This document shows positions 6,128 through 23,406 of a stretch of DNA of 32,000 nucleotides, piece after piece. Source of the stretch: Candidatus Electrothrix sp. GW3-4 (GTDB lineage Bacteria > Desulfobacterota > Desulfobulbia > Desulfobulbales > Desulfobulbaceae); assembly GCF_037902255.1 (NCBI RefSeq), contig NZ_CP147990.1, forward strand, positions 240,001 to 272,000, given 5' to 3'. The first letter of the stretch is position 1. The number at the start of each line of letters is the position of its first letter. The notes beneath the pieces are model-generated. The model was not told the origin of the DNA and searched no databases. It saw only the letters and a program-made list of their open reading frames with translations. The translations under genes and the position numbers were made by a program.

Positions 6128-6155
6128 CTTGACGGGAGAATTATCTCCCGTCAAG
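6128..6155. terminator. strong hairpin shared by convergent genes (TMEM43-like on plus, RND permease on minus)
   Basis: Perfect 12-bp stem CTTGACGGGAGA (6128-6139), loop ATTA, then TCTCCCGTCAAG (6144-6155). It overlaps the RND stop codon (6141-6143). No U-tract on either side. Confidence 0.5.
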
Positions 6156-9100
6156 GTGGTGGATCCTCTCTTTTTCCCCTGCCAACACCCTGTACAGCTT
6201 TATCCTCTGCTGGGTAACCTCCTCTCTTCCCGCAACAAAGATCTCCTTACTCCGTTCGATGAGAAAATAGAGCACCGGCACCACCACCAAGGTGAGGAAG
6301 GTGGCCACTAACAGACCAAAGATAACGACGATAGCCATGGACTGCCACCACTGGCTGGACTCGCTGACCCAGGAGATGTGCAGGTTACGGAAGTCGTAAG
6401 ACACCCCGGTAACCATGGGGATCAGGCCCAGAACCGTGGTGATGGCCGTGAGCAGGACCGGGCGCAGACGGGTGGCCCCGGCCGAGATCACGGCCTCCAA
6501 CAGGGCAAGGCCGCTTGCCCGCAGCTTATTGGTATAGTCGATGAGGACGATGGCGTTGTTCACCACCACCCCGGCCAGGGAGATGACCCCGATGCCGGTC
6601 ATGATGATGCCAAAGGGTTGGCGGTAGAGCATCAGGCCGAAAAAGGCCCCGCCCATGGACAGGATTACCGAGCTCATGATGATAAAGGGCTGGCTCACCG
6701 AGTTGAACTGGGTGACCAGGATCAGGAAGATGAAGAACAGGGCAATGACAAAGGCCCGGCTGAGGAAGGCCTGGGACTCCTGCTGTTCCTGGTTCTCGCC
6801 AGTAAAGCGGACCGTGTAGCCCGGCGGCAGGTGCATCTGGGCCAGCAGCTTCTCGGCCTGCTCACGGACCACAGGACCGGGGATCTTGGTCTCGTCCACA
6901 TTGGCCTTGACTGTGACGGTGCGCAGGTTGTTGATCCGATTAATGTTGCCCAGAGAACCGGTATAATCCACAGTGGCCAGGGTGGACAGGGGGACAATGA
7001 CCCCAGTTGGGGTCGGGATCATGAACTCGCGCAGCACATTATCGACCTGGCGGTCCTTCTCTGGCAACTGGACAGTGATGTCATAGTCCTCATTGCCCTC
7101 CCGGAAGGAGGAGATGGCCAGCCCATTATAGGAGGTCTTGATGGCCGAGCCGATGGCGCTGGTATTGAGCCCGAACAGGGCGGCCTTCTGGCGGTCGATC
7201 CTGATCCTGATCGACGGCATGCCCTCGACATAATTATCCTGGATATCTTCGACATGGGGGATCTTCTCCAGGGCGGCCCTGATCTCTTTGGCAAGTGAAC
7301 CAAGCACAGTAAAGTTATCACCGCTGAGCTCGATATTGATCGGTGCGCCTGTGGGCGGGCCTTCCGCCTCCATGGCCACCGTGATCTTGGCCCCGGCAAT
7401 GTCCTTGATCCGGGTGCGGATCTCCTCTACGGTCTCGTAGGAGGAGCGGGAGCGGTCTGTCAGGTCCAGGAAACGGACCCCCACATGGTTAGGGGTATTG
7501 GGTTCAAAGGCAGAGCCGCCGCCAGTGGAGGAGACGGCCCGGCTGTAGATGATCTTGACGTTGTTCAGATCGCTGGGGCTGGCAGACGATTCGCTGCTCC
7601 CTTTCCTGGTCCCGGTCACGGCCTCTTCAATCTGGCGGAGGATGCTGTCGATATAGTTCAGGTCGGCTCCTTCCGGCATGTCCGTATTAACATAGATCCC
7701 CTTGGGTTCAAGATCCGGGAAGAACTCCACCGGCTTTTCAATGCCCACCACCAGCAGCCAGCCCTGAAACATGAAGATCAGGAGAAAGACAGCAGCGGCA
7801 ATCAGGGCCAAGGGATGGTTGAGGCAGAACCTCAACAGGCCAGCATAGGGGCGCAGGAGCGGTCCCCGGATGACCACGGGTTGTTCGCCGCTGGCCTCCA
7901 CCTCGGCGGAGGAGACCGAGCCAACCTGTTTGGCGCTCTTCATAAACAGGGAGGCCAGGGCCGGATTAATCACCAGGGCCACAAAGAGGCTGGAGGAGAG
8001 GGTGATGATCAGGGTCAGGGGGAGATAGCCCATGAATTCGCCCATGATGCCGGGCCAGAAGAGCATGGGTGAAAACACGGCCAGGGTGGTCAGGGTGGAG
8101 CCGATCACCGGCATGGCCACCTCAGAGGTCGCCTTCATGGCCGCCTCTGTTCTGGGAACACCCTGCTCCATGAAGCGGTAGATGTTCTCGATGATGACGA
8201 TGGCATTATCCACCAGCATACCCAGGGCCAGGATCAGGCTGAACAGGACCACCATATTGAGGGTGATGCCCAGGGCCTGGAGGATCATGAAGGAGAGGAG
8301 CATGGAAAAGGGGATGGCCATGCTGACCAAGAGGGCATTGCGGATGCCCATGGCAAAGAAGATCACCACCACCACCAGGACCAGGCCAGAGAGGATATTA
8401 TTCTCCAGGTCGGCGACCAGGCTCTTGGTGTCTTTGGCCTTGTCCAGGACTTTGGTGATGGTGGTGCCGGTGGGCCAGCCCGGCTGCCTCTTGGCGAGGA
8501 TCTCCTCCACGGCATCGGCAATGGCGATAATATTCTCGCCGGAACGCTTCTTGACCACGATATTGACCGCAGGCAGGCCGTTGAGCCGGGAACGGCTGGT
8601 CTCCTCCTTAAAGCTGTCCAGGACCTGGGCGACATTGCGGGCATAGACCGGCTGACCGTCATGGGTCCCGATCACCAGGTCGTAGAGCTCTTCCGGGGTG
8701 GTGAACTCGCCAGGAATGCGGACCTGGAACTTGCCATCACCCATATGGAGGGCCCCGCCCGAGGTGTTGCTGTTCTCGCCCTGGACCGCAGCCTGAACCG
8801 CAGGGATACTCAGGCCGTAATAGGCCAGTTTTTCCGGATAGAATTCCACCCGGATCTCCCGCTCCCGGGCCCCGGTGATCTCCACGTCCAAGACGCCGGG
8901 CACGCCTTCGATCTCGTCTTCCAGGGTATCGGCAATCTCCTTGAGGCAGCGTTGGCCGCAGGTCCCGGCCAGGGAAAAGATCAGGATCGGCATCTCCGAG
9001 ATATTGACCTCAAAGACATAGGGGTCGTCTTCCAGATCCGTGGGCAGCTCACCCTTGGCCTCATCCACCTTGTCCTTGACCTTGCGCAGGGCGTCATCGA

Positions 9101-9401
9101 TATCCACCCCGGTGCTGAACTCCACGTCGATCAGGGACTCGCCCTCGGAGCTCACCGACTTGACATTTTTCACCCCATCCAGGCTCTTGAGTTTGTTCTC
9201 AATCTCAATGGTGATGGAGCTTTCGATATCGCCTGGGGCCACGCCCCGGTAGGCAGTGGAGATAAAGACATGGGGGATGCTGACATCCGGCTCTGCCTCC
9301 CTGGGCAGGGTAAGGTAGCTGTAGGTGCCCATGACCAGGATAAGGGCGGCCAGGACCAGGACAGAGATGCTTTTTTTAACGGCAAGGTCGGAGATGATCA
9401 T
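6141..9401 (-). CDS. efflux RND transporter permease subunit (AcrB/HAE-type, 12 TM)
   Basis: 1086 aa. N-terminus MIISDLAVKKSISVLVLAALILVMGTYSYLTLPREAEPDVSIP, two large periplasmic loops, and conserved TM4-type segment LGMLVDNAIVIIENI and its duplicate AGVVVNNAIVLIDY. Confidence 0.95.
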   Translation of the reverse strand: MIISDLAVKKSISVLVLAALILVMGTYSYLTLPREAEPDVSIPHVFISTAYRGVAPGDIESSITIEIENKLKSLDGVKNVKSVSSEGESLIDVEFSTGVDIDDALRKVKDKVDEAKGELPTDLEDDPYVFEVNISEMPILIFSLAGTCGQRCLKEIADTLEDEIEGVPGVLDVEITGAREREIRVEFYPEKLAYYGLSIPAVQAAVQGENSNTSGGALHMGDGKFQVRIPGEFTTPEELYDLVIGTHDGQPVYARNVAQVLDSFKEETSRSRLNGLPAVNIVVKKRSGENIIAIADAVEEILAKRQPGWPTGTTITKVLDKAKDTKSLVADLENNILSGLVLVVVVIFFAMGIRNALLVSMAIPFSMLLSFMILQALGITLNMVVLFSLILALGMLVDNAIVIIENIYRFMEQGVPRTEAAMKATSEVAMPVIGSTLTTLAVFSPMLFWPGIMGEFMGYLPLTLIITLSSSLFVALVINPALASLFMKSAKQVGSVSSAEVEASGEQPVVIRGPLLRPYAGLLRFCLNHPLALIAAAVFLLIFMFQGWLLVVGIEKPVEFFPDLEPKGIYVNTDMPEGADLNYIDSILRQIEEAVTGTRKGSSESSASPSDLNNVKIIYSRAVSSTGGGSAFEPNTPNHVGVRFLDLTDRSRSSYETVEEIRTRIKDIAGAKITVAMEAEGPPTGAPINIELSGDNFTVLGSLAKEIRAALEKIPHVEDIQDNYVEGMPSIRIRIDRQKAALFGLNTSAIGSAIKTSYNGLAISSFREGNEDYDITVQLPEKDRQVDNVLREFMIPTPTGVIVPLSTLATVDYTGSLGNINRINNLRTVTVKANVDETKIPGPVVREQAEKLLAQMHLPPGYTVRFTGENQEQQESQAFLSRAFVIALFFIFLILVTQFNSVSQPFIIMSSVILSMGGAFFGLMLYRQPFGIIMTGIGVISLAGVVVNNAIVLIDYTNKLRASGLALLEAVISAGATRLRPVLLTAITTVLGLIPMVTGVSYDFRNLHISWVSESSQWWQSMAIVVIFGLLVATFLTLVVVPVLYFLIERSKEIFVAGREEVTQQRIKLYRVLAGEKERIHHLDGR

Positions 9402-9912
9402 GGTGTGAATTTCCCTGGGTTGTTGCTAAAGATAAATAGTGACCGGAGTCGATTTTACCGGGTGGGGGGAGTTCCGTCAAGAGTTGACTGTATAAGGGCA
9501 GAGTTCCTTATCCTCTCTGAAAAACAATCTGATAGAACCCGTTGCACAGGCTTTCATTCTGTGGTATCACAAGATAATCATTTGCAGCGGCAGGGGCGAG
9601 ACGTTTGGGAAGACAGAGTTTTTGCACGAGCAGGGCTGCTCCTTCAAAAAAGGACCCTCTTTTTTGAAAAAGACCTGGCCCCTTTTTCCTGAGGTGCTCT
9701 CTTCTCTCTCCTCGCGCTCTTCCATCTGCACAATGAAGCGGTCCCTTTTCAGCTCGTGCTCCTTCTTTTTGAGAAAGGAGTCTTCAGTTTTTACCATGCA
9801 GTTGTCCTTTGTTACCTAGGAGCAATGCAATCTCAAAATGCATTGCTGTTCTTTCAAAAGGCATTGTCCCTTTTTCATCTTAGGGCCCTGCCTATCAAGA
9901 GAGGAGGTCATC

Positions 9913-10263
9913 ATGCTGACAGGAAGTATCCCTAAATTACTCAAGGAAGCACGCCAGGTCAAAGAGGCCCTGGAAAAGATCGGACCGGGGCTGCCGGAAT
10001 CCATCACCGTGGCAGAGATAGAGAGACGGATTGCCGCGCTGGAGGCAAAGGTCAGTGCCATAGACGCCGTGAATGCCGACAAGACGCGCCTGGTCAATGA
10101 AAAGAACGCAGATGCCGGGTCGCTGAGCGATTTTATCGTCCGGGCACGATCCGGGGTCCTGAGCGTATTCGGAAAGGATTCCTCGGAATACGATATGGTC
10201 GGCTGTGTCCGGCTCAGTGAGCGGAAGAAGGGGAAGCGGCGTAATGGGGAAGGGAGTGAGTGA
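9913..10263 (+). CDS. hypothetical protein (116 aa, coiled-coil, basic C-terminus)
   Basis: ATG at 9913 preceded by a GAGGAGG RBS (9901-9907). The ORF track starts earlier at 9838, but that stretch has no RBS. Sequence MLTGSIPKLLKEARQVKEALEKIG... No recognisable domain. Confidence 0.55.
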   Translation: MLTGSIPKLLKEARQVKEALEKIGPGLPESITVAEIERRIAALEAKVSAIDAVNADKTRLVNEKNADAGSLSDFIVRARSGVLSVFGKDSSEYDMVGCVRLSERKKGKRRNGEGSE

Positions 10264-10511
10264 GCCTGCTCTGGGTGGAGTAGGTTTTGTTGTTTCGCCG
10301 GGTACGTGTAAAGTGCGTATCCGGTGGCTTAATGTTTTGCTATTGGGCCTCAAATCTCCAGAACCGACCTTGAAATCCATTTCACTGCATGGCCTGAAAA
10401 CGGCCTGTTATTGCTTGTGGTATTTTTCTCGTGGCATGTAACTAGATTTCTGTTTATTATTTATTTTTTCAGGTGATAATGCGATTTTTTTGAAACATAG
10501 GAGGTTATAGT

Positions 10512-11909
10512 ATGAGGGGGGTGGTTACTAGATTTAACGAATTTAGAGGGTATGGCTTTATAAAGTCAGACAGTGATGATGATAATGAATATTTTGTCCA
10601 CTGGTCCTTTATTGATAGTGCTGGATATAAAAATTTATGCAAAGGGGATCTCGTTGAGTTTACACCTGCGTATGAGCCTAAAGGGTTGCAGGCTCAACAT
10701 GTAAAGATTGTTGAGCAAAAGAACGATGAACCTTTAATGCTTAAACCAAACCCTTTTACTCCTCAGCAACCTATTACTAATCCTGATAGATTTGCAGGAA
10801 GAGAGGTTCCAATTATTAATGCTGTTGATTGTATATTTAATCATAAAAATATATTAATAACAGGTGAAAGGGGCATAGGGAAGAGTTCACTAGCTTTTCA
10901 GTTATCCTATTTGGCTGGAGGAGAAGACACTTTACTAAAAAGATTAAATATTAATACAGGTAATTATCAATTTCAATATCTGTGCCCGGATCATCGCTGT
11001 ATCCCAGGGCATAATTTATTCAATATAATTGAGTCATTAATCCTGTCGGCAGTTAGGGCATTAGGAATCGAACTTAGCTATGAAAAAATAACAACAGAAC
11101 TCGGGATTGATGTCAAGTTTGTAAAAGCAATCCAAAAAAGCGAGGTAGAAAATAGACCTTCAAACGAACTCATTACTTTTTTTGTTGATGCAATTGAAAG
11201 AATTTATTCCAGATCTGAAGGAAAATTTAATGGGATATTATTCTTAATAGATGAAATTGATTGCCTTGAGGATGGAGATAATTTAGCAGCTTTTTTAAAA
11301 GCATCAATTGAATCGTTAAATTTTAAGAATTATGGAAATATTTCTTTTATATTGGCTGGGGTAACAGGAACATTAACAGAACTTTTATTACAACACCAAT
11401 CATTTTCCAGACTGTTTGAGAATATTGAACTGAAGAGAATGACCGAGTCAGAACTTTCCGAAATAATAACAAAATCTCTAGCAGGAACTCAAGTTGTTAT
11501 GGATTCCGATGTGAAAACACAGGTTATCAATCTTTCGGATAGATTTCCAGAGCCAATACACCTCCTTGGATATCATTGTTTCAGATTCGATCAGGATATG
11601 AATATAGATCATATAGATTTTGAAAGAGCTCTAAATTTCATAATTAGAGAACTGAAAAAACAGGAGTTTGACAATCTATATGCAATTGCCAAAAATAGTT
11701 TTGGCTATCCCATCTTGAAAAAGATCGCATATATGAAAAAAAGTTATTTTACGGTGTCAGATTTGTCTAACGAACTTGATGTGAAAGAGAGTAAAGTCGC
11801 CGGATTTATTGGGGACATGGTTGGAAAATCAATAATCATAAAAGCAAAAGGAAGATTGTTCCGGCTTAAAGAGCCTCTTTTTCGAATATATTTAAAGTGG
11901 GTATTGTAG
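10512..11909 (+). CDS. cold-shock domain / AAA+ (Orc-Cdc6 or archaeal-ATPase-like) P-loop NTPase / C-terminal winged-helix fusion protein
   Basis: RBS AGGAGG at 10499-10504.
- aa 1-67: CSD with RNP1-like RGYGFI and RNP2-like YFVHWS.
- aa 93-97: FAGRE preface.
- Walker A: GERGIGKSS (10863-10889).
- Walker B: LFLIDEID (11238-11261).
- A FILAG strand follows.
- aa about 395-460: wHTH-like (FTVSDLSNELDVKESKVAGFIGDMVGKSIIIKAKGRLFRL).
The DNA is very AT-rich. Confidence 0.85.
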   Translation: MRGVVTRFNEFRGYGFIKSDSDDDNEYFVHWSFIDSAGYKNLCKGDLVEFTPAYEPKGLQAQHVKIVEQKNDEPLMLKPNPFTPQQPITNPDRFAGREVPIINAVDCIFNHKNILITGERGIGKSSLAFQLSYLAGGEDTLLKRLNINTGNYQFQYLCPDHRCIPGHNLFNIIESLILSAVRALGIELSYEKITTELGIDVKFVKAIQKSEVENRPSNELITFFVDAIERIYSRSEGKFNGILFLIDEIDCLEDGDNLAAFLKASIESLNFKNYGNISFILAGVTGTLTELLLQHQSFSRLFENIELKRMTESELSEIITKSLAGTQVVMDSDVKTQVINLSDRFPEPIHLLGYHCFRFDQDMNIDHIDFERALNFIIRELKKQEFDNLYAIAKNSFGYPILKKIAYMKKSYFTVSDLSNELDVKESKVAGFIGDMVGKSIIIKAKGRLFRLKEPLFRIYLKWVL

Positions 11910-11952
11910 AAATTGTCACTCTGGCAGCTACCGGCTTTCTGTGGGAGGTAAA

Positions 11953-12144
11953 ATGAAGTGCCAGCAAGTCATTACTCTTTTATCTTCCTGTAAAAAAGAA
12001 CTGAAGATTCGTTTCGGCGTGACCAAGCTGTTGCTGTTCGGCTCAACTGTACGCGATACAGCAAACGATGAGAGCGATGTAGACACCTTGGTCGCCTTTG
12101 ACGGCTCTGCAACCTCTAAGCGATATTTCGGACTCCTGTTTTGA
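11953..12144 (+). pseudogene. MNT-type nucleotidyltransferase (type VII TA antitoxin-like), 3'-truncated
   Basis: MKCQQVITLLSSCKKELKIRFGVTKLLLFGSTVRDTANDESDVDTLVAFDGSATSKRYFGLLF* carries the GS...D.D catalytic motif (LFGSTVRD..SDVDTLV). It stops where the conserved LEDLLG-KVDLV C-terminal part normally follows. No HepT partner is present. RBS GGGAGG at 11943-11948. Confidence 0.7.
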
Positions 12145-12187
12145 TACCCGCGTTGCTGCCTTTGCTGAAAGCACTTAACGAAATAAA

Positions 12188-12371
12188 ATGAGAAAACTCA
12201 TCAGCTTCGACTGGGCCATGAAAAAACTCCTGCGGAGCAAGGCCAATTTCGAGATCCTGGAAGGATTCCTCAGCGAACTTCTCAAAGAGGATATCCATAT
12301 CCTTGATGTCCTGGAAAGTGAGAGCAATAAAGAAGAATATCACGACAAATTCAATCGGGTCGATCTGAAAG
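12188..12371 (+). pseudogene. Rpn/YhgA-like PD-(D/E)XK recombination-promoting nuclease, 5' fragment only
   Basis: MRKLISFDWAMKKLLRSKANFEILEGFLSELL...[10 protein letters not shown] matches the conserved N-terminus of the Rpn family (FDWAFKKLF...ILxxFLxxLL...D...VD). The frame then degenerates and abuts an nhaA fragment. Confidence 0.6.
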
Positions 12372-12383
12372 TCAATCAAGATC

Positions 12384-12503
12384 CCGGTAGAGATCCGGAT
12401 CGGCACCTTTGCGATCACCAAGCCCCTCCTGCTCTGGATCAACGACGGCCTCATGGCCCTGTTCTTTTTCTTCATCACCCTTGAACTCAAAAGGGAGATC
12501 CTG
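12384..12503 (+). pseudogene. nhaA: nhaA Na+/H+ antiporter fragment (about 40 codons of a roughly 390-aa protein)
   Basis: The frame containing ORF 12453-12641 reads [40 protein letters not shown]. This corresponds to the E. coli NhaA segment [39 protein letters not shown]. The flanks on both sides are unrelated. Confidence 0.65.
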
Positions 12504-12643
12504 CCGATTTTCCTCGCCTTAAAGAAATCAGACTTCTGTCCTCCATGCGGTAATTCGGTTAAGGTCTTAACATGCAGGCGAGGTTGGTGGTATAGTGGAA
12601 GAGAAAGAGGCGTTGAAGGGAAGCTCGGGAGCCCGTCGTAAGA

Positions 12644-12672
12644 GAAAGGTGACAGGCAACCTTTCCTGTTTT
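12644..12672 (+). terminator. candidate intrinsic terminator
   Basis: Stem GAAAGGT (12644-12650) / ACCTTTC (12659-12665) with an 8-nt loop, followed by CTGTTTT. Weak stem. Confidence 0.3.
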
Positions 12673-12728
12673 GGGCTGCATGAAGGCAGCAGCTGCAAGA
12701 GTACAATCTACAGCCAGTGAGGTGCATC

Positions 12729-12971
12729 ATGGGAGGGTTTTGGAATCTGTTTAAGCAGGAGTTGAAAAACGAATGGCATCGTTATGAAAATATGGGACAC
12801 CCGCCGCAGAATTCTGGAACAGGAGGGGCAGGTGCAGCTACAGGTGGTGATGCTGGACCGGGGGGCGGCACGATTGATCAATGGCGCATGATCTACCTGA
12901 AGTTCAAACAGATTGAAGGACGGGATCCCTATAGTTTTCAGGAACTGGTGGATTGGTGGAATCGAATCTGA
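12729..12971 (+). CDS. small hypothetical protein (80 aa, Gly-rich centre)
   Basis: ATG at 12729 with GTGAGG 6 nt upstream. MGGFWNLFKQELKNEWHRYENMG...DPYSFQELVDWWNRI has non-random, well-formed termini, but there is no recognisable domain and it lies within a debris zone. Confidence 0.3.
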   Translation: MGGFWNLFKQELKNEWHRYENMGHPPQNSGTGGAGAATGGDAGPGGGTIDQWRMIYLKFKQIEGRDPYSFQELVDWWNRI

Positions 12972-13094
12972 CCTTGTTCCGTCCCCGCAAGCCCTCTCAA
13001 TGACATTGTATTCAGGGATAATGAGCAACTTTGTGTCCACGAAGGGGGGAAGAAGGGCTTTTCCTGCTGCGGAGAGCACGCAAGCCCCACGTCA

Positions 13095-13139
13095 CTCATC
13101 AGCTTTGACGGGGCCATGAGAAAACTCCTGAGGAGAGCC
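13095..13139 (+). repeat. second, degenerate copy of the Rpn-like gene 5' end
   Basis: CTCATCAGCTTTGACGGGGCCATGAGAAAACTCCTGAGGAGAGCC (LISFDGAMRKLLRR) aligns with 12197-12245, CTCATCAGCTTCGACTGGGCCATGAAAAAACTCCTGCGGAGCAAGGCC (LISFDWAMKKLLRSKA). About 40 of 45 nt are identical. It is a direct repeat about 900 bp away. Confidence 0.55.
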
Positions 13140-13511
13140 TGATCCGCTGTCAGGGCCTGGGCTACCTTCTTACAACTCACGAACGTGATGAAGCGCCAGT
13201 AACTATCTTTCCTGTAAGCCTTTTTCAAGCTTGAATTCTCCGGCAGTATTCTCCTTCTCCTCCTTGCTGCCGTCCTGCCCCTGTCTTACGATTGTTCCCC
13301 ATCGCTGTGTTCTTTGTTTTTGTTCCATGATGACACGATAGTGTAATACTTATGGGCTGTGTTGTTACATTTTTGTTTATTTTCTCGACTCGGTATGTTT
13401 TCTTGTTCTTGGTATTGAGATGAATTGGTGCTCGTTTACTCTTGACGATTCTTTCGTAAAGAGAGCGATGTTTTTTTGAAAAGAACTATATTCTAACTAA
13501 GAGAGGAACGA

Positions 13512-14786
13512 ATGCAAGTGAAGAGATCGACGCTATTGTTGTTTTTTGTCAGCATGGTGATGTTAGGGATGACCAGCTACGCCTCTGCCGACTCTGTCAG
13601 AATAGGTCTTAATTATCCACAGACCGGCCCGTATTCAGTGCAGGGAAAAGCCCAGCTCGATGCGGCGCGATTAGCTATTCAGGAAATCAATGAGCAGGGC
13701 GGTATACTTGGGCGCAAGATTGAACTCGTCATGAGGGATACACAGTCGAAACCGGACGTATCAACCAAAAATGTGCTTGAACTTATTGATAAAGAAAACT
13801 GCGAGATGATCTTTGGAGGATCTTCTAGTGCAGTCGCGATAGCCGGTGGTAAGGCAGCAAAGTCAAGAGGGAAGTTGTATTTCGGCACCTTAACCTATTC
13901 CAACACCACCACAGGTGAAGCCGCCCATAAGTATATGTTTCGGGAGTGTTATAACGCATGGATGGGGGCCAAGGCCCTTGGGAAATATCTCGTGGAAGAG
14001 AACCTGCAAGGGTTGAAATATTTTTACATCACAGCTGATTATACTTGGGGAAAAACAACTGAGGAATCTATTCGCACCTTCAGTATGACAACCAATAAAC
14101 GCAGACATCTCCAGCGGTATGTACCTTTTCCCGGAGCCACGTATAAAGAATTATCCGATGCCCTGGTATGGGCCGGGGCCGTTAAACCGGATGTCCTGGT
14201 GCTTGTCTTGTTCGGGAAAGATATGTCGCGCGCGCTTACCATACTTGAAGAACGCGATATGAAAAAAAAGTTTAAGGCCATAGTGGTGCCCAATCTTACC
14301 CTGGGTATGGCCAATGAAGCCGGCGCTGAGGCAATGGAGGGGGTTATCGGTGCCCTGCCGTGGGCCTGGAATGTGCCTTACAAATACAATTACCCTCAAG
14401 GAAAAGAGTTTGTTGAAAAATTTTCCAAGGTCTATAACAGTTATCCCTCCTCGTCGGCTGGATCTGCATATACTATTTTATATCAGTACAAAGATGCCGT
14501 TGAACGGGCTGGAACCTTTGAGAGTAAGAAAGTTATTACGGCCCTTGAAGGACATGCCTTTGTGTCTCTGAAAGATGAGCAGGTATGGAGAGCATTTGAT
14601 CATCAGGCTGTTCAGACCATCTACACGGTCCGTTGTAAACCGGCTGAAGAGGTGCGCCAAGATCGATTTAAGGAGGATTACTTTGAAATCCTCGACAAAA
14701 TGGATGGCGACGAAGCGGCACGTACCAAGGAGCATTGGCTGAAGCTTCGGGAAGATGCGGATGAGCCAGCCGAGCTTCAATTTTAA
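13512..14786 (+). CDS. ABC transporter substrate-binding protein, branched-chain amino acid (LivK / Peripla_BP_6) type
   Basis: 424 aa. Signal peptide MQVKRSTLLLFFVSMVMLGMTSYASA, then IRIGLNYPQTGPYSVQGKAQLDAARLAIQEINEQGGILGRKIELVMRDTQSKPD, typical of the family. RBS AGAGAGGAA. No permease or ATPase genes are nearby. Confidence 0.9.
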   Translation: MQVKRSTLLLFFVSMVMLGMTSYASADSVRIGLNYPQTGPYSVQGKAQLDAARLAIQEINEQGGILGRKIELVMRDTQSKPDVSTKNVLELIDKENCEMIFGGSSSAVAIAGGKAAKSRGKLYFGTLTYSNTTTGEAAHKYMFRECYNAWMGAKALGKYLVEENLQGLKYFYITADYTWGKTTEESIRTFSMTTNKRRHLQRYVPFPGATYKELSDALVWAGAVKPDVLVLVLFGKDMSRALTILEERDMKKKFKAIVVPNLTLGMANEAGAEAMEGVIGALPWAWNVPYKYNYPQGKEFVEKFSKVYNSYPSSSAGSAYTILYQYKDAVERAGTFESKKVITALEGHAFVSLKDEQVWRAFDHQAVQTIYTVRCKPAEEVRQDRFKEDYFEILDKMDGDEAARTKEHWLKLREDADEPAELQF

Positions 14787-14887
14787 TGGTGTGCTCTGCG
14801 CAAGATTGCCCGCACCACAGAAGGGAGGTCAACGGAGGAGGTTGACGCTGTGGCGCAGGCTTTTGTTGAGGAAGAGAGCTGGAAATA

Positions 14888-16042
14888 TCAGGGCATGAAG
14901 GCGCTCACATCCGTGAGTTCCTTGACCACCCGCACCTTCTGGCCATCTTCCACCGTCCGGTGGCCCTGGATGATGACCTTCTCCCCGAGCTGGAGTCCCT
15001 TGCGGATCAGGATTTGCCAACCCTCGGTAAAACCGGTTTCCACTGCTCGCTTATGGGCTACCCCTTCCTCCACCACATAGACAAATTGCTCGTCATTGCG
15101 GGAGATAACCGTGTACAGAGGTACCGCGACAACCTGTTCTTTGGTCTGTTTGATAATATTGGCCTGGAGGAACATGCCCGGCAGGATCTGTCCGTCCGGG
15201 TTATCCAGGGCTAGTTCCAGCCGGTAGGCATGAGCCAGGGTCTCCGGTGCCGGGGCCAGGAAATGGACCTGGGCCTGGAGCTGGGCATTGTGCAGGGAAC
15301 GAATATCTACCCCGACCTCTTTGAGTTGTCTGACCGCGTTGACATCGGCCTCGGGTACGGCAACCACCGCCTTGACCCGGTCGATCTGGAGGATCTCTGC
15401 AATGGGGGCAGGCATCATCTGGTTGACCACCATCCCAACCTCCGCGTCAAGCCGGTTGATCACCCCGGAGATGGGGGCGGTAATCCGACAACGGGAGAGG
15501 GCGAGCTCGGCGTTTTCCAGGGCGGACTTGCTCTGGCGCAGGGTTGATCGCTGTTCATCCAGATTGGCCTGGGTGGAGATCCCCTTGCTGCGCAGGGTCT
15601 TGTTCCGCGTATAATCGGCCTGGGCCAAGGCATAGGCGGCCTTGGCCGAGTCCAGGGCAATGCGGTAATCCTTATCCTCTATCCGGGCAATAAGCTGGCC
15701 CTGTTTAACATGATCGCCTTCCCGGACCACAATCTCTTCAATGCTGCCACCTATCTTGGCCATCAATGCCAGTTTTGTCCAAGGCTCTATGAGGCCAGGC
15801 AAGGTGATTTTATCTCGTAGCACAGTCGGCCTGAGTTCCAGAACAACCACGTTGGTTGGTGGCGCTTCCACTGCTGTGGCGTTTTTCAGTTCTTCTTCAC
15901 GGGCGCTCTTTTGTTCGCTGACCCGTTGGCCGATCAAGAGGGCTGCCGCAAGCAGGAGAAGAATAAAGAACAGGCCGGGCAGGTTCTTCAGGATAAACCA
16001 GATACTCTTTCCGCGCAGGGTCTTTGGGGTGGGTGATGTCAT
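14888..16042 (-). CDS. efflux RND transporter periplasmic adaptor (membrane fusion protein, HlyD_D23 type)
   Basis: 384 aa. N-terminal TM anchor (WFILKNLPGLFFILLLLAAALLIG), a lipoyl-like motif (GGSIEEIVVREGDHVKQGQLIARIE), a coiled-coil hairpin, and RITAPISGVINRLDAEVG. Its start codon overlaps the tetR stop (ATGA at 16039-16042). Confidence 0.9.
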   Translation of the reverse strand: MTSPTPKTLRGKSIWFILKNLPGLFFILLLLAAALLIGQRVSEQKSAREEELKNATAVEAPPTNVVVLELRPTVLRDKITLPGLIEPWTKLALMAKIGGSIEEIVVREGDHVKQGQLIARIEDKDYRIALDSAKAAYALAQADYTRNKTLRSKGISTQANLDEQRSTLRQSKSALENAELALSRCRITAPISGVINRLDAEVGMVVNQMMPAPIAEILQIDRVKAVVAVPEADVNAVRQLKEVGVDIRSLHNAQLQAQVHFLAPAPETLAHAYRLELALDNPDGQILPGMFLQANIIKQTKEQVVAVPLYTVISRNDEQFVYVVEEGVAHKRAVETGFTEGWQILIRKGLQLGEKVIIQGHRTVEDGQKVRVVKELTDVSAFMP

Positions 16043-16683
16043 GATTCGTTGTTCTGGTTTGCGCCCTTTGCAGGCGTTTCTTGCGGAAGAAGCCCGGTTA
16101 GGGCCTGATCAATCATCAGCTCCAGGGACTCGCGGACATCGTCTTCACTGTGCAGGCGTTCAGAGTACCAGGCCGAAAGGGCCATCAGGTACAGGCCGTA
16201 AAAATGCCCGCTCGTGATAATCAGCTCAATATCCCACCGCAGCTGCCCTTTTTCCTGGGCTTCTTTGAAGATGCTGACAAAGAGCTCAAGGAACTGTTCT
16301 TCAATCATCCGTGATTTCTCGATGGTGATCTCTTTGGGAAAGGTCAGTTCCCGGACTAAGGTTCGACCAAATTCTTTGTTCTTGGTCACAAAACGGAACT
16401 CGCTCATAAGGACCAGCAGCATCCTTTCCGCCAGCGGTGCCTTGGGATCGAGTTTTTCCCGGATCTCATCATGGATAAAGGCGAGTTCTTCTTCACAGAA
16501 GGCCAAGAGGATCTCATTCTTTGAGGAGAAATAAGAGTAGATGGTTCCTTTTCCTATGCCTGCGGCCTTGGCCAGGGCCGACACGCTGGTGCTTTCATAG
16601 CCCCGTTCTCCGAACAGGTTGATTGCCGCTTCCATGATAGCGGCCTTGGTGGCCCTTTTTTTTTGTTCCCGTAATCCTGCCAT
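16039..16683 (-). CDS. TetR/AcrR family transcriptional regulator
   Basis: The start is taken at ATG 16683 (MAGLREQKKRATKAAIMEAAINLFGERGYESTSVSALAKAAGIGKGTIYSYFSSKNEIL, a canonical TetR HTH). The ORF track start at 16785 adds 34 non-homologous residues. Translationally coupled to the adaptor gene. Confidence 0.85.
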   Translation of the reverse strand: MAGLREQKKRATKAAIMEAAINLFGERGYESTSVSALAKAAGIGKGTIYSYFSSKNEILLAFCEEELAFIHDEIREKLDPKAPLAERMLLVLMSEFRFVTKNKEFGRTLVRELTFPKEITIEKSRMIEEQFLELFVSIFKEAQEKGQLRWDIELIITSGHFYGLYLMALSAWYSERLHSEDDVRESLELMIDQALTGLLPQETPAKGANQNNES

Positions 16684-16726
16684 TATTCCGTTTTGAAAAA
16701 ATACGTTAAGTTTTTTTGTAACACCC

Positions 16727-16747
16727 ATCCCTCCCCAGGGGAGGGAT
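16727..16747. promoter_or_regulatory. perfect palindrome upstream of tetR (candidate operator)
   Basis: ATCCCTCCCC-A-GGGGAGGGAT: 10-bp arms around a single central base, 44 bp upstream of the tetR ATG. There is no U-tract, so it does not look like a terminator. Confidence 0.25.
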
Positions 16748-17105
16748 AACAAGACATAAAAGGTGGGAGGCCTAGTTGGCTTCACCGACCACGTGCATAT
16801 AAAAGGTGGCCTGCGGTTTATCTGCCACCTTTATTGTGTGTTGTCCCGGTTCGCCGGGGTGAAGGTTCGTGGTAAGGGGAGCTGCTGAAGTTTTATTTTT
16901 GACTTTGGTTGAAATGTTAAGCGTGGTCGGGAAAAAGGTCAAGGAAGAAATGACTGCGGTCAAGTTTTGAAGGGGGAAATGAGAGCCCAGGGTATTGCTT
17001 GCTGTTCTTGCGTTGTTAGCGCAGTCTGTGTTTTTCCAGCAGCAGCGTCCTGGTTGAGAGAGGAAATCCATCTGTAAAGAATTCAGTTTGACGTGATAAC
17101 AGCCT

Positions 17106-17133
17106 TTGGATTTTTTTAAGAAAGATGTATAAT
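17106..17133 (+). promoter_or_regulatory. candidate sigma70-type promoter of the redox cluster
   Basis: TTGGAT (17106-17111), 16-nt spacer, TATAAT (17128-17133), about 70 nt upstream of the ATG at 17206. Pattern match only. Confidence 0.35.
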
Positions 17134-17205
17134 TAAATCCATAGGATTTTGCTTGATGCTGAATTTTTTCTTAAAGAACAGAAAGTACCTAACGGAGGCA
17201 ACCTG

Positions 17206-19170
17206 ATGGGAGAGCGGCAAGTGTATACGGTCACCTTTCTTCCGGCGGGGAGGACCTGTAGGGTTCAGGCAGGGACAGAGCTGCTCAAGGCGGCGAGAAA
17301 GGCTGGCTTGCATGTGAATGCCTCCTGCGGTGGCGCCGGGGTCTGCGGCAAATGCCAGGTCATTATTGAGAAGGGATCGGTTCGCGGCGGTAAAAGCGAA
17401 AAAATACCAGCCGCCTTCTCTGCCCAGGGATACCGGCAGGCCTGTCGTGCGCAGGTCTGTGAAGATGTCGTTGTCCGTATTCCAGAGGCAAGCGGTCAAC
17501 GCCAAGGAGGGCTGGGCACGGCCCTTCCGCAGCGGAATCATGCTCGTCAGCATGTCTTTGATATGGACGAACTCAAACAGGAAGGCGGTTGGTCGCCCTC
17601 TGTTGAGAAGGTCTGTATTGAATTGGCTCCTCCGGCTGGCCATGATAATCGGGCAGATGCCGGTCGCCTGTTGCAGGGTCTGGCTGCCCAGTATAACAGG
17701 AGATGTGAGCTCAAGAGTCTGGCCTTCCTCCAGAAGCTGGGTAAGGCCTTGCGACAGGAAGATTTTCAGGCCACGGCTACGCTGGAGGTCCCGGTGAATC
17801 TGGCCGCCCGCTATCGGCTGTTGGATATCCAGCCGGGCTATCAATGCCATCGGAATTTTGGGTTGGCCTTTGATATCGGGACGACAACCATCTACGGCGT
17901 GCTCATTGATCTTGAGACAGGGCGATTTCTTGCCGAGGCCTCCTGCTATAACCCGCAGATGAGTTATGGCGAGGATGTGATCTCCAGGATCATCTGTGCA
18001 GAAAAGCCGGACGGCCTGGATCTAATGCAGAGGCTGGTAAATGAGGCCATGAACCAACTTATCACCGAGATGCTGGACAAGGCCAGTCCCTCGGAGAGAA
18101 TTGGGCAGCAGCCTGTGACGCGGGATGAGATCAACTCTGTCTCCATTGCTGGCAATACCACCATGACCCACCTGCTCCTGCGTCTGGACCCGAGTAGTAT
18201 CCGCCGCTCCCCTTATGTGCCAACCACCACCTTTTTCCCCTCGTTTCGGGCCCGGGAGGTAGGGCTTAATCTCTCAGACACCTGTGCCTCCTTGGTCTAT
18301 CCAGCTATTTCCAGTTATGTGGGGGGAGATATCGTGGCCGGGGTCATGGCCTCAGGGATGTATAGCTCAGAACAACTGACCCTGTTCATTGATGTGGGGA
18401 CCAATGCGGAAATTGTTATCGGCAACCGGGATTGGTTAGCCTGTGCAGCCTGCTCTGCTGGCCCGGCCTTTGAGGGGGGCGGTATTACCCACGGAATTCG
18501 GGCCGTGGAAGGGGCGATCAGCGATTTCAGTCTGAATCCGGAAACCCTGGAGCCCATGAATGTCACTGAAGGGGACAAGGCCCCGATAGGTATATGCGGC
18601 TCTGGCCTGCTCATTATTGTGGCGACCCTGTTTGAACACGGCATCCTTAATCAGAGTGGCAAGTTCCATCCCCTGGGACATCCCCGTATCCGTGAGGGAA
18701 AAAGCGGGCATGAGTATGTTCTGGCCTGGAAAGACGAATGCGCCGCAGCCCATGACATCGTGATCAATGAAGTGGATATTGAGAATTTTATTCGGGCCAA
18801 GGGGGCAATTTTCGCCGGAATCACCACGGTGTTGCAGCAGGTTGGTTTGCAGGTGAGCGATCTGGAGCAGATCATTCTTGCTGGTGGGTTTGGCTCCTAT
18901 ATCGATCTGGACAGTGCAATGACTGTGGGCCTGCTGCCGGAAGTGGACCCGGAGATGATCCTGTACCTCGGGAATGGTTCCCTGACAGGAAGTTGGATGT
19001 GTGAACTCTCTAACCATATTCGTCGGGATGTGGTGGAGGTGGTTCGGAAGATGACCAGTTTTGAGCTCTCGGAAGTTCCGGGTTTCAAGGATCAGTATAT
19101 GGCCTCTATGTTTCTGCCCCATACGGACCTGAGCCTGTTTCCTGGCGCAGCCGTGCGTAACAACGTATAA
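17206..19170 (+). CDS. 2Fe-2S ferredoxin domain / ASKHA (DUF4445) protein, RACo-like (reductive activator of corrinoid proteins family)
   Basis: ATG at 17206 with a GGAGG RBS at 17194-17198. N-terminal plant-type ferredoxin (YTVTFLPAG...NASCGGAGVCGKCQV). ASKHA motifs FDIGTTTIYG, SIAGNTTMTHLLL, DVGTNAEIV, GICGSGL and LAGGFGSY. Confidence 0.85.
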   Translation: MGERQVYTVTFLPAGRTCRVQAGTELLKAARKAGLHVNASCGGAGVCGKCQVIIEKGSVRGGKSEKIPAAFSAQGYRQACRAQVCEDVVVRIPEASGQRQGGLGTALPQRNHARQHVFDMDELKQEGGWSPSVEKVCIELAPPAGHDNRADAGRLLQGLAAQYNRRCELKSLAFLQKLGKALRQEDFQATATLEVPVNLAARYRLLDIQPGYQCHRNFGLAFDIGTTTIYGVLIDLETGRFLAEASCYNPQMSYGEDVISRIICAEKPDGLDLMQRLVNEAMNQLITEMLDKASPSERIGQQPVTRDEINSVSIAGNTTMTHLLLRLDPSSIRRSPYVPTTTFFPSFRAREVGLNLSDTCASLVYPAISSYVGGDIVAGVMASGMYSSEQLTLFIDVGTNAEIVIGNRDWLACAACSAGPAFEGGGITHGIRAVEGAISDFSLNPETLEPMNVTEGDKAPIGICGSGLLIIVATLFEHGILNQSGKFHPLGHPRIREGKSGHEYVLAWKDECAAAHDIVINEVDIENFIRAKGAIFAGITTVLQQVGLQVSDLEQIILAGGFGSYIDLDSAMTVGLLPEVDPEMILYLGNGSLTGSWMCELSNHIRRDVVEVVRKMTSFELSEVPGFKDQYMASMFLPHTDLSLFPGAAVRNNV

Positions 19171-19242
19171 AGAGGGAGAAGACAATCTTATGATTTTGCC
19201 GTTGATATTTTTTGTCCTGCTCAATGCTGGAGGAAATGATTG

Positions 19243-20577
19243 ATGAAAACCTCTCGTTGTTCAGTCTGTGGTTATCTGCATTTCGGTGGTCTTGATTTCC
19301 ATTTTTGTCCGCTTTGTCATGCCACGGCTGATCTCTTTACGGACTGTACAGTAACTGACCGGGGTAAGCCGGGGACCGGGGATATCATGATGGTACGGAT
19401 GATTCAGGAAATGGCCGAGACAGGGGAACCGTTTCGCGAAGGCAAGGGGCCAACAAGGATGTTCCTGAATATGGATGACTTAATTTTTCGGCCTGCTGTG
19501 CTTGCTCGTTTACCGCTGGCAGAGACGGTTGAGGTCACGACCGAGGTTGTGCTCGGGAAAACAGCACAGCAGCCTATTGTCCTCAAGACGCCGATCCTTA
19601 ATGCCGCGATGTCATACGGTGCCTTAAGTAAGGAAGCCAAGATGGCCCTGGCCTTGGCCTCCTCCCGAGTTGGAACCATTGCCAATACCGGAGAAGGGGG
19701 CATGTTGGATGAAGAGCGGGAGCTTGCCGAATACCTTACCTTGCAGTATGCTCCTGGTCATTTTGGGGTGAAGCGGGAACGGTTGTTATTGGCTGATATG
19801 GTGGAGATAAAGCTTGCTCAGGGTGCTCATCCGGGAACAGGGGCGTGGTTGTCCGCTGCCAATGTTAGTGTTGATATTGCTGCTACCCGAAGAATACCTA
19901 TAGGAGAGGCGGCGAGTTCGCCCGTAGTCCACGCGGATATACAAGGTGGAGGTGAGCTGTCAGAAAAAATTTTAAAACTTCGTGAGCTCACCCTGGGAAA
20001 GCCCATTGCGGTAAAAATAGCTGGCGGACACCTGGAAGATGATCTGAAAGCGATTTTTCATCAGGAGTATATTCCCGATGTCTTGGTCATTGATGGTGGT
20101 GAAGGCGGAACCTGTGCCTCCTCTGTGATCATGAAGGATCATGTTGGGCTCCCCTTGGTCTATGCCTTGCCCAGGGTGGTTAGTTTTCTCCGAAAGGAGG
20201 AGTTGTTTCATCGCGTTACCCTGATTGCGGCAGGTGGTATCCGTCATGCCGGGGATGTTGCTAAGGCCCTTGCTCTTGGGGCAGAGGCTGTGTACATGGG
20301 CGGGGCACTTAAGATCGCCCTGGGCTGTACCTATCGCCGACAATGTCATCTCGGCAATTGTCCGCATGGCATTGCAACCCAGGATAAGAAACTGCGTAAG
20401 CGCCTTGATGTGGAACAGGGGGCAACCCGCATTGCCCGTTTTATCCAGGCTACGACTGAGGAGGTGAAATCCATTGCCCGCTGCTGTGGCAGGGGTTCCG
20501 TACATGACCTTGATCGAACGGATTTGGCGGCCCTGCAGCCTGAGTTGGCACGCATTACCGGGGTTGAACTGGCATAA
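19243..20577 (+). CDS. glutamate synthase-related FMN/Fe-S protein (GltB domain-2 like) with N-terminal rubredoxin-like zinc ribbon
   Basis: ATG at 19243, with a GGAGGA RBS 8 nt upstream. N-terminus CSVCGYLHFGGLDFHFCPLCH (CxxC-x13-CxxC). Core motifs PILNAAMSYGALS, NTGEGG, KLAQGAHPG, IDGGEGGT, IAAGGIR and CHLGNCPHGIATQD are typical of the Glu_synthase family. Confidence 0.85.
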   Translation: MKTSRCSVCGYLHFGGLDFHFCPLCHATADLFTDCTVTDRGKPGTGDIMMVRMIQEMAETGEPFREGKGPTRMFLNMDDLIFRPAVLARLPLAETVEVTTEVVLGKTAQQPIVLKTPILNAAMSYGALSKEAKMALALASSRVGTIANTGEGGMLDEERELAEYLTLQYAPGHFGVKRERLLLADMVEIKLAQGAHPGTGAWLSAANVSVDIAATRRIPIGEAASSPVVHADIQGGGELSEKILKLRELTLGKPIAVKIAGGHLEDDLKAIFHQEYIPDVLVIDGGEGGTCASSVIMKDHVGLPLVYALPRVVSFLRKEELFHRVTLIAAGGIRHAGDVAKALALGAEAVYMGGALKIALGCTYRRQCHLGNCPHGIATQDKKLRKRLDVEQGATRIARFIQATTEEVKSIARCCGRGSVHDLDRTDLAALQPELARITGVELA

Positions 20578-20652
20578 AAAGAAGGGGCAGGGAATTAAAA
20601 AATAAGCAGCAGGACGTTGTCTGGAGCTGCGTAACCTGATGGGCGTATATTC

Positions 20653-21144
20653 ATGCTTTCTCAATTTTCATCCATGCTCGTAGCGTTGCTCCTGGTTATT
20701 GCCGGTGCCACACTTCTTGTGATGATTGAAATGACGGGAAAAAATGGAAACTCTCAGCAGGAGAAGAAAAAAAAGATTCTTCGTGCCTTTGGCTATCTTC
20801 TTTTCTTTCTCTTTGCCTTGGTCGTGGCCCTTCTGCTGAACAATGCCGGGGGATTCAACTATCAGGGGATGATGTCTGTCTGGGAAGCAGTACATATTGT
20901 CCTGGCCTTACTCCTGCTGACGCTTATCCTTATTAAGCTCTTTCTCATCAAGCTGCACGTCCAAAGCAGTTTCCGATTGGTTTTCCTGGGAACGGGACTA
21001 TTTGGTTTTATTTTCGTCCTGATCGGCGTTACAATAGGATATTATATTTTTAATCCCTCAGGGCTTTACTCTGCGTCTGAGATGCCAATGGGTTGGGGCT
21101 CTCAGGGGGGGCTCAGCTCAGCGTCTTATGGGGGGAAAATGTAG
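20653..21144 (+). CDS. 4-TM membrane domain of TM/multi-CxxCH cytochrome paralog 1 (frame broken; N-terminal fragment)
   Basis: Collinear with aa 1-135 of the 22004 gene (FSSML..E-MTGK..HIVLALLL..GYY). It ends at TAG 21142, just after G-runs at 21105-21111 and 21130-21135. Confidence 0.7.
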   Translation: MLSQFSSMLVALLLVIAGATLLVMIEMTGKNGNSQQEKKKKILRAFGYLLFFLFALVVALLLNNAGGFNYQGMMSVWEAVHIVLALLLLTLILIKLFLIKLHVQSSFRLVFLGTGLFGFIFVLIGVTIGYYIFNPSGLYSASEMPMGWGSQGGLSSASYGGKM

Positions 21145-21895: not shown

Positions 21896-22003
21896 GATCA
21901 ATCCTGCATCGGATCCCTGGAGGAGTCATTCCGCGTGGAAGATCCGATACCGTTCCGGCACATCGCCTGAACAGATTCAAAAGGAAAGAACAAGGTAGGT
22001 GTT

Positions 22004-23389: not shown

Positions 23390-23406
23390 GCCGAGAAGCC
23401 CGGCTC
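23388..23406 (+). terminator. candidate terminator after the cytochrome cluster
   Basis: GAGCCG (23388-23393) / CGGCTC (23401-23406) with a 7-nt loop, followed by GTTTCG. It overlaps the stop codon and sits between convergent genes. Confidence 0.35.

Follow-up and report, generated by a model that had tools for sequence, protein, structure and literature searches.

The nearest structural relatives of the gene described here belong to the archaeal ATPase family (PF01637), represented by 2qen (PABY2304) and 2fna (SSO1545); these proteins combine an ATPase core, a lid, and a winged helix, lack a cold-shock domain (CSD), and have no known function. The gene is located at positions 10512-11909 of a 32,000-nt stretch of the Candidatus Electrothrix sp. 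GW3-4 genome (contig NZ_CP147990.1, positions 240,001 to 272,000, hereafter the window), and its 465-aa product has the same ATPase-lid-winged-helix layout, preceded by an N-terminal CSD. A CSD fused to a conflict nucleoside triphosphatase (NTPase) has been noted in passing before (PMC7159879, PMC11090510). Kaur et al. (PMC7159879) place the CSD among the effector-position domains of NTPase conflict systems, and the authors who described the CSD of CnuB in type I CoCoNuT systems interpreted it as targeting RNA or single-stranded DNA (ssDNA) (PMC11090510). The effector of retron-Se72 (type V) shows that there is a precedent for a CSD as the output module of a defence system. Full-text literature searches returned no description of the CSD-ATPase-winged-helix architecture.

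Our leading reading, to which we give a probability of roughly 45%, is that this gene is a self-contained, horizontally mobile one-gene conflict system, directed against phages or other mobile elements and acting as an ATP-switched nucleic-acid clamp. The gene belongs to an uncharacterised family found on prophages, conjugative elements, and defence islands, and this distribution makes a one-gene anti-phage or anti-plasmid system the most likely explanation; association and homology point to the defence role. Because membership in Orc1/Cdc6, PF01637, Avs/STAND, retron type V, and CoCoNuT fails, and because the match to nSTAND1 is borderline and that to phrog_6841 partial, we rate it as a credible NTPase-centred conflict gene of unusually minimal design, without an enzymatic effector and with a function suggested by association and homology.

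The open reading frame (ORF) is 100% identical to protein P0001 of Candidatus Electrothrix sp. GW3-4. Like its full-length homologues, P0001 is named in the databases only as "cold shock domain-containing protein". About 100 full-length homologues with the CSD-ATPase-winged-helix architecture are known (33-68% identity, 460-520 aa), so the ORF is a real gene and not a chance reading frame. The structure was modelled with AlphaFold2 (AF2) from an alignment of 53 sequences; the model has a predicted local distance difference test score (pLDDT) of 85.5 and a predicted TM score (pTM) of 0.74. The gene and its modules are listed below.

10512-11909, + strand: CSD-ATPase ORF, 465 aa, ATG start, intact
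10512-10712, + strand: CSD, aa 1-67; five-stranded OB barrel with a Pfam match and matches to cold-shock protein (Csp) structures
10713-10748, + strand: variable linker, aa 68-79; mean pairwise identity 0.20
10749-10847, + strand: pre-P-loop segment, aa 80-112; NPFTPxxP motif and F-A-G-R-E preface
10848-11429, + strand: AAA+ NTPase core, aa 113-306; matches to AAA_16, AAA_22, and nSTAND1, fold of Orc1/Cdc6 and 2qen
10863-10889, + strand: Walker A, GERGIGKSS; invariant G123 and K124
11085-11153, + strand: insert modelled with low confidence, aa 192-214; strand 2 and Walker B are separated by two helices, and the insert lies between these
11238-11261, + strand: Walker B, LFLIDEID; invariant D247 and E248
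11394-11414, + strand: S-x-x-R box; invariant R300
11430-11693, + strand: helical lid, aa 307-394; F-P-x-P-x-H-L-L-G-Y motif at 11544-11573
11694-11906, + strand: C-terminal winged helix, aa 395-465; AF2 model and alignment with the C-termini of 2fna and 2qen

The Pfam CSD profile (PF00313) matched aa 1-65 with 51.9 bits (cutoff 27, E=7e-14), and the N-terminus scanned alone against the same profile scored 56.5 bits. The domain also matched solved Csp structures (1g6p, E=3.7e-12). In the AF2 model its strands span residues 2-9, 14-19, 26-30, 47-55, and 58-66. The RNP1-like motif RGYGFI occupies aa 12-17 and the RNP2-like motif YFVHWS aa 27-32; across the fusion family G13, G15, F16, Y27, F28, and H30 are at least 90% conserved. 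CSDs bind single-stranded nucleic acids, and with the RNP1 and RNP2 residues conserved to this degree, the predicted binding of RNA or ssDNA ligands is probably retained.

One explanation of such a protein is that it is an enlarged cold-shock protein, i.e., a housekeeping regulator of stress responses or an RNA chaperone. The database name agrees with this, and the CSD scores best on the CspD and CspE models; however, all scores on Csp equivalog models are far under cutoff (47 vs 115 bits). The gene is strain-specific in Electrothrix, patchy over phyla, and foreign in composition in every host, and one copy is frameshifted and perhaps a pseudogene. We consider a housekeeping role very improbable.

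The linker that follows the CSD varies in length (the aligned span aa 62-80 comprises 17-28 residues among the homologues), and the pLDDT falls to 68 there. The adjoining segment, aa 80-112, is the most conserved of the protein (mean pairwise identity 0.60); N80, P81, F82, P84, P87, F94, G96, and R97 are invariant, and the NPFTPxxP motif is near-invariant at the N-terminus of CSD-less relatives as well. Invariant residues of the NTPase core are G118, R120, G123, K124, S126, D247, E248, H295, S297, and R300. R300 is a putative arginine finger: it aligns with the G-R of 2fna and fits the box VII pattern of Orc/Cdc6, which holds the arginine finger at this place. The insert at aa 192-214 is modelled with a pLDDT under 50; its length is kept (30-37 residues over aligned aa 185-220) at an identity of only 0.23, and in the topology of the fold it appears to take the place of the DNA-contacting, initiator-specific motif of Orc/Cdc6. 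The AAA+ module is of the initiator type, has a complete set of invariant catalytic motifs, and is under purifying selection.

P346 of the lid is invariant, and F345, P348, G353, and Y354 are at least 90% conserved. The lid motif, FPEPIHLLGY, aligns with the G-I-P (G-x-P) motif of the archaeal ATPases 2fna and 2qen. The winged helix is canonical in the model and composed of helices at residues 398-407, 415-422, 426-438, and 455-464 and strands at 442-444 and 450-452. Its mean pairwise identity, 0.305, is the lowest of the folded modules; the CSD reaches 0.449 and the pre-Walker segment 0.60. Neither a nuclease, protease, TIR, or SIR2 domain nor an effector domain of any other kind was detected in the 465 aa by profile scans with Pfam, PADLOC, and NCBIfam.

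An initial annotation of the window, made without database searches, had read the protein as an N-terminal CSD (which the profile check of the N-terminus and the Csp structures bear out), an NTPase of the Orc/Cdc6, archaeal-ATPase, or STAND-like type, and a probable C-terminal winged helix, which the AF2 model of aa 395-465 contains. It had seen no nuclease or protease domain and could name no housekeeping or defence family for the protein, and the profile scans agree on both points. Its coordinates for Walker A, Walker B, the C-terminal module (11694-11891), and a segment with 12 G/C in 60 nt were all reproduced.

The best match in a Foldseek search was 2qen (the Pyrococcus "archaeal ATPase"; E=1e-11, TM-score 0.63 on the target). 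Ranks 2-5 were Orc1/Cdc6 structures, including 2qby_A (1.2e-11), 2v1u_A (1.2e-10), and 1fnn_A (4.8e-10), and the archaeal and eukaryotic Orc1/Cdc6 proteins were followed by RuvB and RFC. A profile of the CSD-less core matched 2fna (E=4.8e-7) and also 2qen, with an alignment that extends over the lid motif into the winged helix; kinship to the archaeal ATPases is therefore supported at the superfamily level. PF01637 itself gave no match to the window protein at E<=1, and relatives of the protein scored 23.5-27.8 bits (cutoff 33.2). The ATPase is best described as Orc/Cdc6-like or archaeal-ATPase-like, bordering on STAND.

The protein shares with Orc1/Cdc6 the AAA+ core, lid, and C-terminal winged helix, the two helices between strand 2 and Walker B, and an S-x-x-R box followed by an E-L-x-x-I-I pattern. 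It differs in that the Orc1/Cdc6 model TIGR02928 scores only 14.6 bits on the window protein (cutoff 181.3), and in that the gene is accessory, mobile, patchy, and AT-rich, with a CSD at the N-terminus. Genes of the Orc1/Cdc6 type are conserved, inherited vertically, and act at replication origins, whereas this gene is strain-specific in its occurrence and found on mobile elements and islands.

These similarities raise the possibility that the gene is a replication or maintenance factor of mobile elements, an Orc/Cdc6-like initiator or loader whose winged helix would read the origin and whose CSD would hold the unwound strand. The best functionally characterised fold matches are Orc1/Cdc6 proteins bound to origin DNA, TIGR02928 gives weak matches, and copies adjoin RepA_N, ParA, and ParB genes on integrative and conjugative elements (ICEs), others integrases, MobL, and topoisomerase genes. 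However, 14.6 bits is very far from the TIGR02928 cutoff of 181, many copies are single-gene islets without an element backbone, and the window copy lies among gene fragments. In P2-like phages replication is supplied by gpA, and the relative occupies an accessory hotspot; moreover, the leucine-rich repeat (LRR) and nucleotidyltransferase N-termini found on related cores (see below) are unlike those of an initiator. An element replication factor thus appears unlikely.

The similarity to STAND and Avs proteins consists of a match of nSTAND1 (PF20703) to aa 91-346, at 26.6 bits just under the cutoff of 27.1, and of the modular N-terminal position. PF20703 is also listed in the precomputed annotation of P0001 and of many homologues, and the PGAP annotation calls E. 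coli relatives "nSTAND1 domain-containing NTPase". In contrast to Avs and NLR proteins, the window protein is only 465 aa long and has neither a C-terminal repeat sensor (TPR, WD40, LRR) nor an enzymatic effector. STAND structures were absent from its top 50 fold matches, and PADLOC gave no match to an Avs or NLR model. Membership in Avs/NLR was ruled out on the lack of repeat sensor, effector, and model match.

Two described systems share the CSD. CnuB resembles the window protein in having a CSD N-terminal to an AAA+ NTPase in a predicted defence protein; however, it belongs to the McrB GTPase clade (NxD motif), has coiled coils, and needs a McrC-type nuclease partner, all of which are absent here. 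Membership in CoCoNuT/McrBC was rejected for the wrong NTPase clade and for the lack of any McrB or DUF2357 (McrC) match in the protein or its neighbours and of any conserved partner gene. The CSD of the window protein matches the NCBIfam model of the retron-Se72 effector, NF038236 (E=1.9e-8), and the PADLOC model CSD_V (E=8.7e-9), but here it is fused to an ATPase, and NF038236 reaches only 34.1 bits of a cutoff of 82. With a score under cutoff, no reverse transcriptase nearby, and no msr/msd in an Rfam scan, retron type V was also ruled out. DS-41 of DefensePredictor is only a remote P-loop relative (at most 26 bits, cutoff 370), and searches of a viral fold library returned only generic AAA+ and clamp-loader matches. 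None of the named housekeeping or defence families in Pfam, PADLOC, and NCBIfam claims the protein.

The full-length fusions are distributed patchily over Chlorobiota, Desulfobacterota, Bacillota, Verrucomicrobiota, Actinomycetota, Gammaproteobacteria, and one metagenome-assembled genome of Theionarchaea. We surveyed the neighbourhoods of 15 distinct loci; those with informative surroundings and the remainder are as follows.

P0003, at 66% identity the nearest homologue for which surroundings are available: precedes a full type I Zorya system by ~350 nt, in three contigs
Prosthecochloris copy: island with ParDE, PIN_12, RelA_SpoT, RelE, PIN, and Abi_2
L023 copy: MazEF, two SIR2-like genes, Phd-YoeB, and a methyltransferase
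Verrucomicrobial copy: GmrSD nearby
Gut Bacillota and other copies: on ICEs or directly beside integrases
Desulfosarcina copy: between inverted transposon copies
Pseudoalteromonas copy: within a prophage of ~50 kb; the gene has a frameshift at a T-run
Four other loci: without an obvious hallmark; the gene is nevertheless 10-27 GC points under its flanks

The Zorya system beside P0003 consists of ZorA, an OmpA-type ZorB, an EH_Signature ZorC, and a ZorD with SNF2 and Mrr domains. Defence genes adjoin 4 of the 15 loci, and mobile or defence hallmarks are found at 11 of the 15, in a tally made without a matched background. In each of the 19 loci compared (14 fusion and 5 bare-core loci), the GC content of the gene is lower than that of its flanks, by a mean of 13 points. 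The homologues thus sit in variable, mobile, or defence loci and are not core genes in fixed synteny, as the initial annotation had expected of a conflict gene. We found no full-length fusion in sequenced phages or plasmids, where the matches were to the CSD only or to distant cores; the one fusion in an IMG/VR prophage is frameshifted. This copy, from the prophage of Pseudoalteromonas luteoviolacea DSM 6061 (L017 9983-11414, the same as L034), is divided into two ORFs 1.5 kb from the tape-measure gene, and the split is due either to a pseudogene or to a homopolymer sequencing error.

An all-versus-all BLAST search of the 632 neighbouring ORFs of the 15 loci revealed no conserved partner gene; the only matches across loci were an integrase or integrase remnant, a weak pair of sigma factors, and one spurious match. 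These results bear on the explanation that two genes make up the system, the protein being its sensor or switch and an exchangeable toxin being encoded next to it. The NTPase would detect nucleic acid and then activate or release the toxin; in the window, this partner would have been lost or degraded. Several copies do have toxin-like genes as immediate neighbours on the same strand: in Prosthecochloris, PIN_12 lies upstream and the stop codon is overlapped by a RelA_SpoT gene, and HNH lies upstream in Paenibacillus and Fic upstream on a gut ICE. In addition, a truncated MNT gene begins 32 nt past the stop codon in the window, and one relative of the core is fused to a nucleotidyltransferase. 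However, no neighbour is common to the loci, and the distance to the next gene is usually 100-400 nt. Toxin-like neighbours are lacking beside many copies, the copies in prophage hotspots stand alone, and toxin genes of this kind are common in the same islands by chance. We regard a two-gene system as fairly unlikely.

Details of three fusion loci deserve mention. In Prosthecochloris (L001 9238-12674, 66% identity), the start of the 428-aa RelA_SpoT gene overlaps the stop of the homologue by 23 nt, with PIN_12 upstream; the homologue and the RelA_SpoT gene may form an operon with a toxin of the small-alarmone-synthetase type. In L020 (9533-11017), the gene after the fusion, in the same orientation, encodes a 494-aa protein with a faint match to ORC-CDC6-like (PF24389), i.e., two Orc-like NTPases are located side by side, with an integrase upstream. 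In L022 (7057-10394), a small AT-rich islet inserted directly after a sigma-factor gene comprises the fusion, an ORF of 129 aa, and a DUF559 gene; the surroundings are otherwise housekeeping (RNase III-like, ThyX, SpoU methylase, YacP).

The core consisting of ATPase, lid, and winged helix is much more widespread than the fusion. At a threshold of E<=1e-3 its profile matched 10,377 representative clusters, and at E<=1e-30 it still matched 595. Most members are bare proteins of ~400 aa, and many carry a CSD at the N-terminus; in P0198 the N-terminal module is instead an LRR, in P0215 it is a GlnD-like nucleotidyltransferase, and some members have unassigned C-terminal extensions. A separate CSD gene beside bare cores, i.e., a split version of the fusion, was not found. 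The core of the window protein matched phrog_6841 with E=2.9e-24 over aa 80-356, covering only profile positions 22-279 of 470; a member from a P2-like phage matched positions 1-419 (E=2.5e-182). The prophage ATPases of phrog_6841 resemble the window protein in their homologous NTPase core and in being stand-alone, AT-rich, and accessory; they differ in lacking the CSD and are only ~24% identical to it. PDC-S59 of PADLOC matched the P2 protein weakly (28 bits) and gave no match to the window protein. Members of phrog_6841 occupy the following sites.

P2-like phages of Salmonella and E. coli: gpA-gpQ interval
Lambdoid prophage: Q-holin interval
Gordonia phage Cashline: between the tail genes and the integrase
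Acinetobacter plasmid: directly after a BsuBI/PstI restriction-modification pair

The gpA-gpQ interval has been defined as an anti-phage hotspot that holds old and tin (Rousset et al., PMC9122126). Relatives of the core of the window protein, identified without scoring against phrog_6841, are encoded on seven further IMG/VR contigs.

Carriage on ICEs and prophages would also fit a counter-defence or establishment factor that coats incoming ssDNA or element transcripts against host nucleases and sensors. The same hotspots can hold anti-defence genes, and binding of single-stranded nucleic acids is established for the CSD. Other copies, however, are located in chromosomal defence and toxin-antitoxin islands and directly beside Zorya, and the window copy occupies a variable gap of the chromosome, where the window shows no backbone of an element. 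Known anti-defence proteins are small, and a 465-aa ATPase would be atypical among them. A counter-defence role seems quite unlikely to us.

Several observations weigh against the one-gene conflict system. For the family and for phrog_6841 alike, the argument for defence is one of association and homology only, and cargo with another function would be expected on mobile elements just as well. Mobile or defence hallmarks are not evident in 4 of the 15 neighbourhoods, and the neighbourhood tally has no matched background control. The ATPase rises above noise in no PADLOC or NCBIfam defence model. A scan of reference genomes, limited to patterns and insensitive, yielded just nine related loci: six full-length fusions, one fragment, and two CSD-less cores. 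Lastly, the effector step is speculative since the protein has no recognisable killing or degrading domain.

If the gene is a conflict system, it might act as follows. The CSD would capture single-stranded nucleic acid of the invader, such as a transcript or an intermediate of replication or transfer. The winged helix, possibly together with the ATPase insert at aa 192-214, would contact duplex DNA or set the specificity. ATP binding would drive oligomerisation across an interface with the putative arginine finger R300, and the resulting multivalent assembly would coat or clamp the nucleic acid and block its replication or expression. CspD inhibits replication, and the clamp would act in a similar manner; the invader would be stopped or the infected cell arrested.

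The common engine of NTPase and winged helix would then carry an N-terminal module that can be exchanged: the CSD, an LRR, a nucleotidyltransferase, or none. The N-terminal position, the precedent of retron-Se72, and the effector list of Kaur et al. (PMC7159879) favour the CSD as an effector. A role as a targeting or sensing add-on is favoured by the occurrence of an LRR in its place, by the large number of bare cores that look functional, and by the analogy to McrB and CoCoNuT. We lean slightly toward the latter. A bolder and, in our opinion, doubtful extension is that the core defines a very large and hitherto unrecognised class (~10,000 clusters at 50% identity) of minimal immune NTPases without an enzymatic effector, whose Orc/Cdc6-like engine, present on phages, ICEs, and islands of bacteria and archaea, is retargeted by swaps of the N-terminal module (CSD, LRR, nucleotidyltransferase, or none). 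The CSD version would sense single-strand/duplex junctions in intermediates of the invader's replication or transfer and stop these by ATP-driven, initiator-like oligomerisation, not by cutting or by depletion of NAD or nucleotides.

If the family is defensive, it would add a compact 1.4-kb single-gene system without an enzymatic effector, in which an ATP switch of the replication-initiator type has been turned to immunity, and the immune lineage of STAND/NLR proteins would be tied, at the simplest level, to that of Orc/Cdc6 and the archaeal ATPases. It would also provide a function for the "ATP-binding proteins" of phrog_6841 and nSTAND1-like type, a group that is very large, lacks annotation, and occupies validated prophage defence hotspots, and a second mechanistically tractable CSD in immunity after the retron-Se72 effector.

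The gene is the core of an AT-rich cassette, whose remaining features are listed here.

10295-10327: terminator-like hairpin, closing the ORF upstream of the cassette
10408-10511, + strand: AT-rich leader; its left edge is the composition breakpoint
10431-10460, + strand: promoter-like site, GTGGCA-18-TATTAT; consensus match only
10499-10504, + strand: Shine-Dalgarno sequence AGGAGG, 7 nt before the ATG

The gene has a GC content of 0.338 and a GC content at third codon positions (GC3) of 0.27, compared to a GC content of 0.513 for the window and a GC3 of 0.80 for the AcrB gene; it is the most AT-rich 1.4-kb stretch of the window, with only 12 G/C among the 60 nt of 10801-10860. A two-segment maximum-likelihood scan placed the composition breakpoints at 10408 and 11915; therefore, the AT-rich unit is exactly one gene plus a leader of ~100 nt. 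This agrees with the single-gene cassette with abrupt edges that the initial annotation had described. Its further claim of a recent horizontal acquisition held in part: the composition is foreign, but the AT bias is a family-wide trait, and for this reason the acquisition cannot be dated as recent. An Rfam scan of the window detected no structured RNA. We found no convincing direct or inverted repeats marking the ends of the cassette; only a duplicated 5' fragment of an Rpn-like gene is conspicuous.

The cassette is located between genes of an efflux system.

6141-9401, - strand: AcrB efflux pump, flank of the variable block
9481-14873: strain-specific variable block of 5.4 kb that holds the cassette; synteny break relative to E. 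communis
14888-16042, - strand: HlyD adaptor, other flank of the variable block
14888-16785, - strand: TetR-HlyD adaptor unit, efflux genes

The window is collinear with E. communis on both sides of the block (14873-25299 and 7677-9481). In E. communis the gap between adaptor and pump measures 7.2 kb and contains NhaA, a KAP NTPase, DsbB/DsbA, and a histidine kinase; strain YB6 has yet other cargo in this gap. The differing cargo in the three genomes identifies the gap as a variable site at the genus level, and the CSD-ATPase is strain-specific cargo at this site. The TetR-HlyD and AcrB flanks are in accord with an earlier suggestion that the block interrupts an efflux operon; a fresh interruption is not, as the gap is variable throughout the genus. 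For cable bacteria, which are uncultured and filamentous, this strain-variable island at a fixed chromosomal site would be a possible tracker of phage pressure if the family is defensive.

The only sequence common to the gaps of the window and E. communis is a 120-nt remnant (12381-12500) of the Na+/H+ antiporter NhaA, corresponding to aa 46-104 in a tblastn search and 88% identical to the intact NhaA beside the adaptor in E. communis; the block was thus reshaped by deletion or insertion. The remnant adds to the toxin-antitoxin and recombination debris that had been noted around the cassette and that we also found. The truncated MNT nucleotidyltransferase past the stop codon (NTP_transf_2) is 67 aa long. 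The 5' end of a PDDEXK_2 (Rpn-like) gene is present in two 42-nt copies (12196-12237 and 13094-13135) that are 90% identical and 898 nt apart, the first of which opens a truncated 98-aa ORF (12188-12484).

The KAP-family P-loop NTPase in the E. communis gap (L027 12009-13915) is 345 aa long and overlapped by the next ORF of 294 aa; the gap that holds the CSD-ATPase in the window has a different P-loop NTPase as cargo in E. communis. A 141-aa ORF directly upstream of the cassette (9838-10263, + strand) has a GC content of 0.55 and no Pfam or PHROG match; its composition is unlike that of the cassette, and the two were therefore probably not acquired together. A second AT-rich patch at ~750-2300 (GC ~0.37-0.39) contains a 254-aa ORF (1068-1832, - strand) without a Pfam match; this ORF adjoins genes for a SAM methyltransferase and an ABC-F ATPase and may be another foreign gene. 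Two domains are combined in the ORF at 29847-31094 (+ strand), which appears to be N-terminally truncated: the end of AAA-ATPase_like (PF09820, matched at profile positions 139-201 only) and a PDDEXK_9 nuclease.

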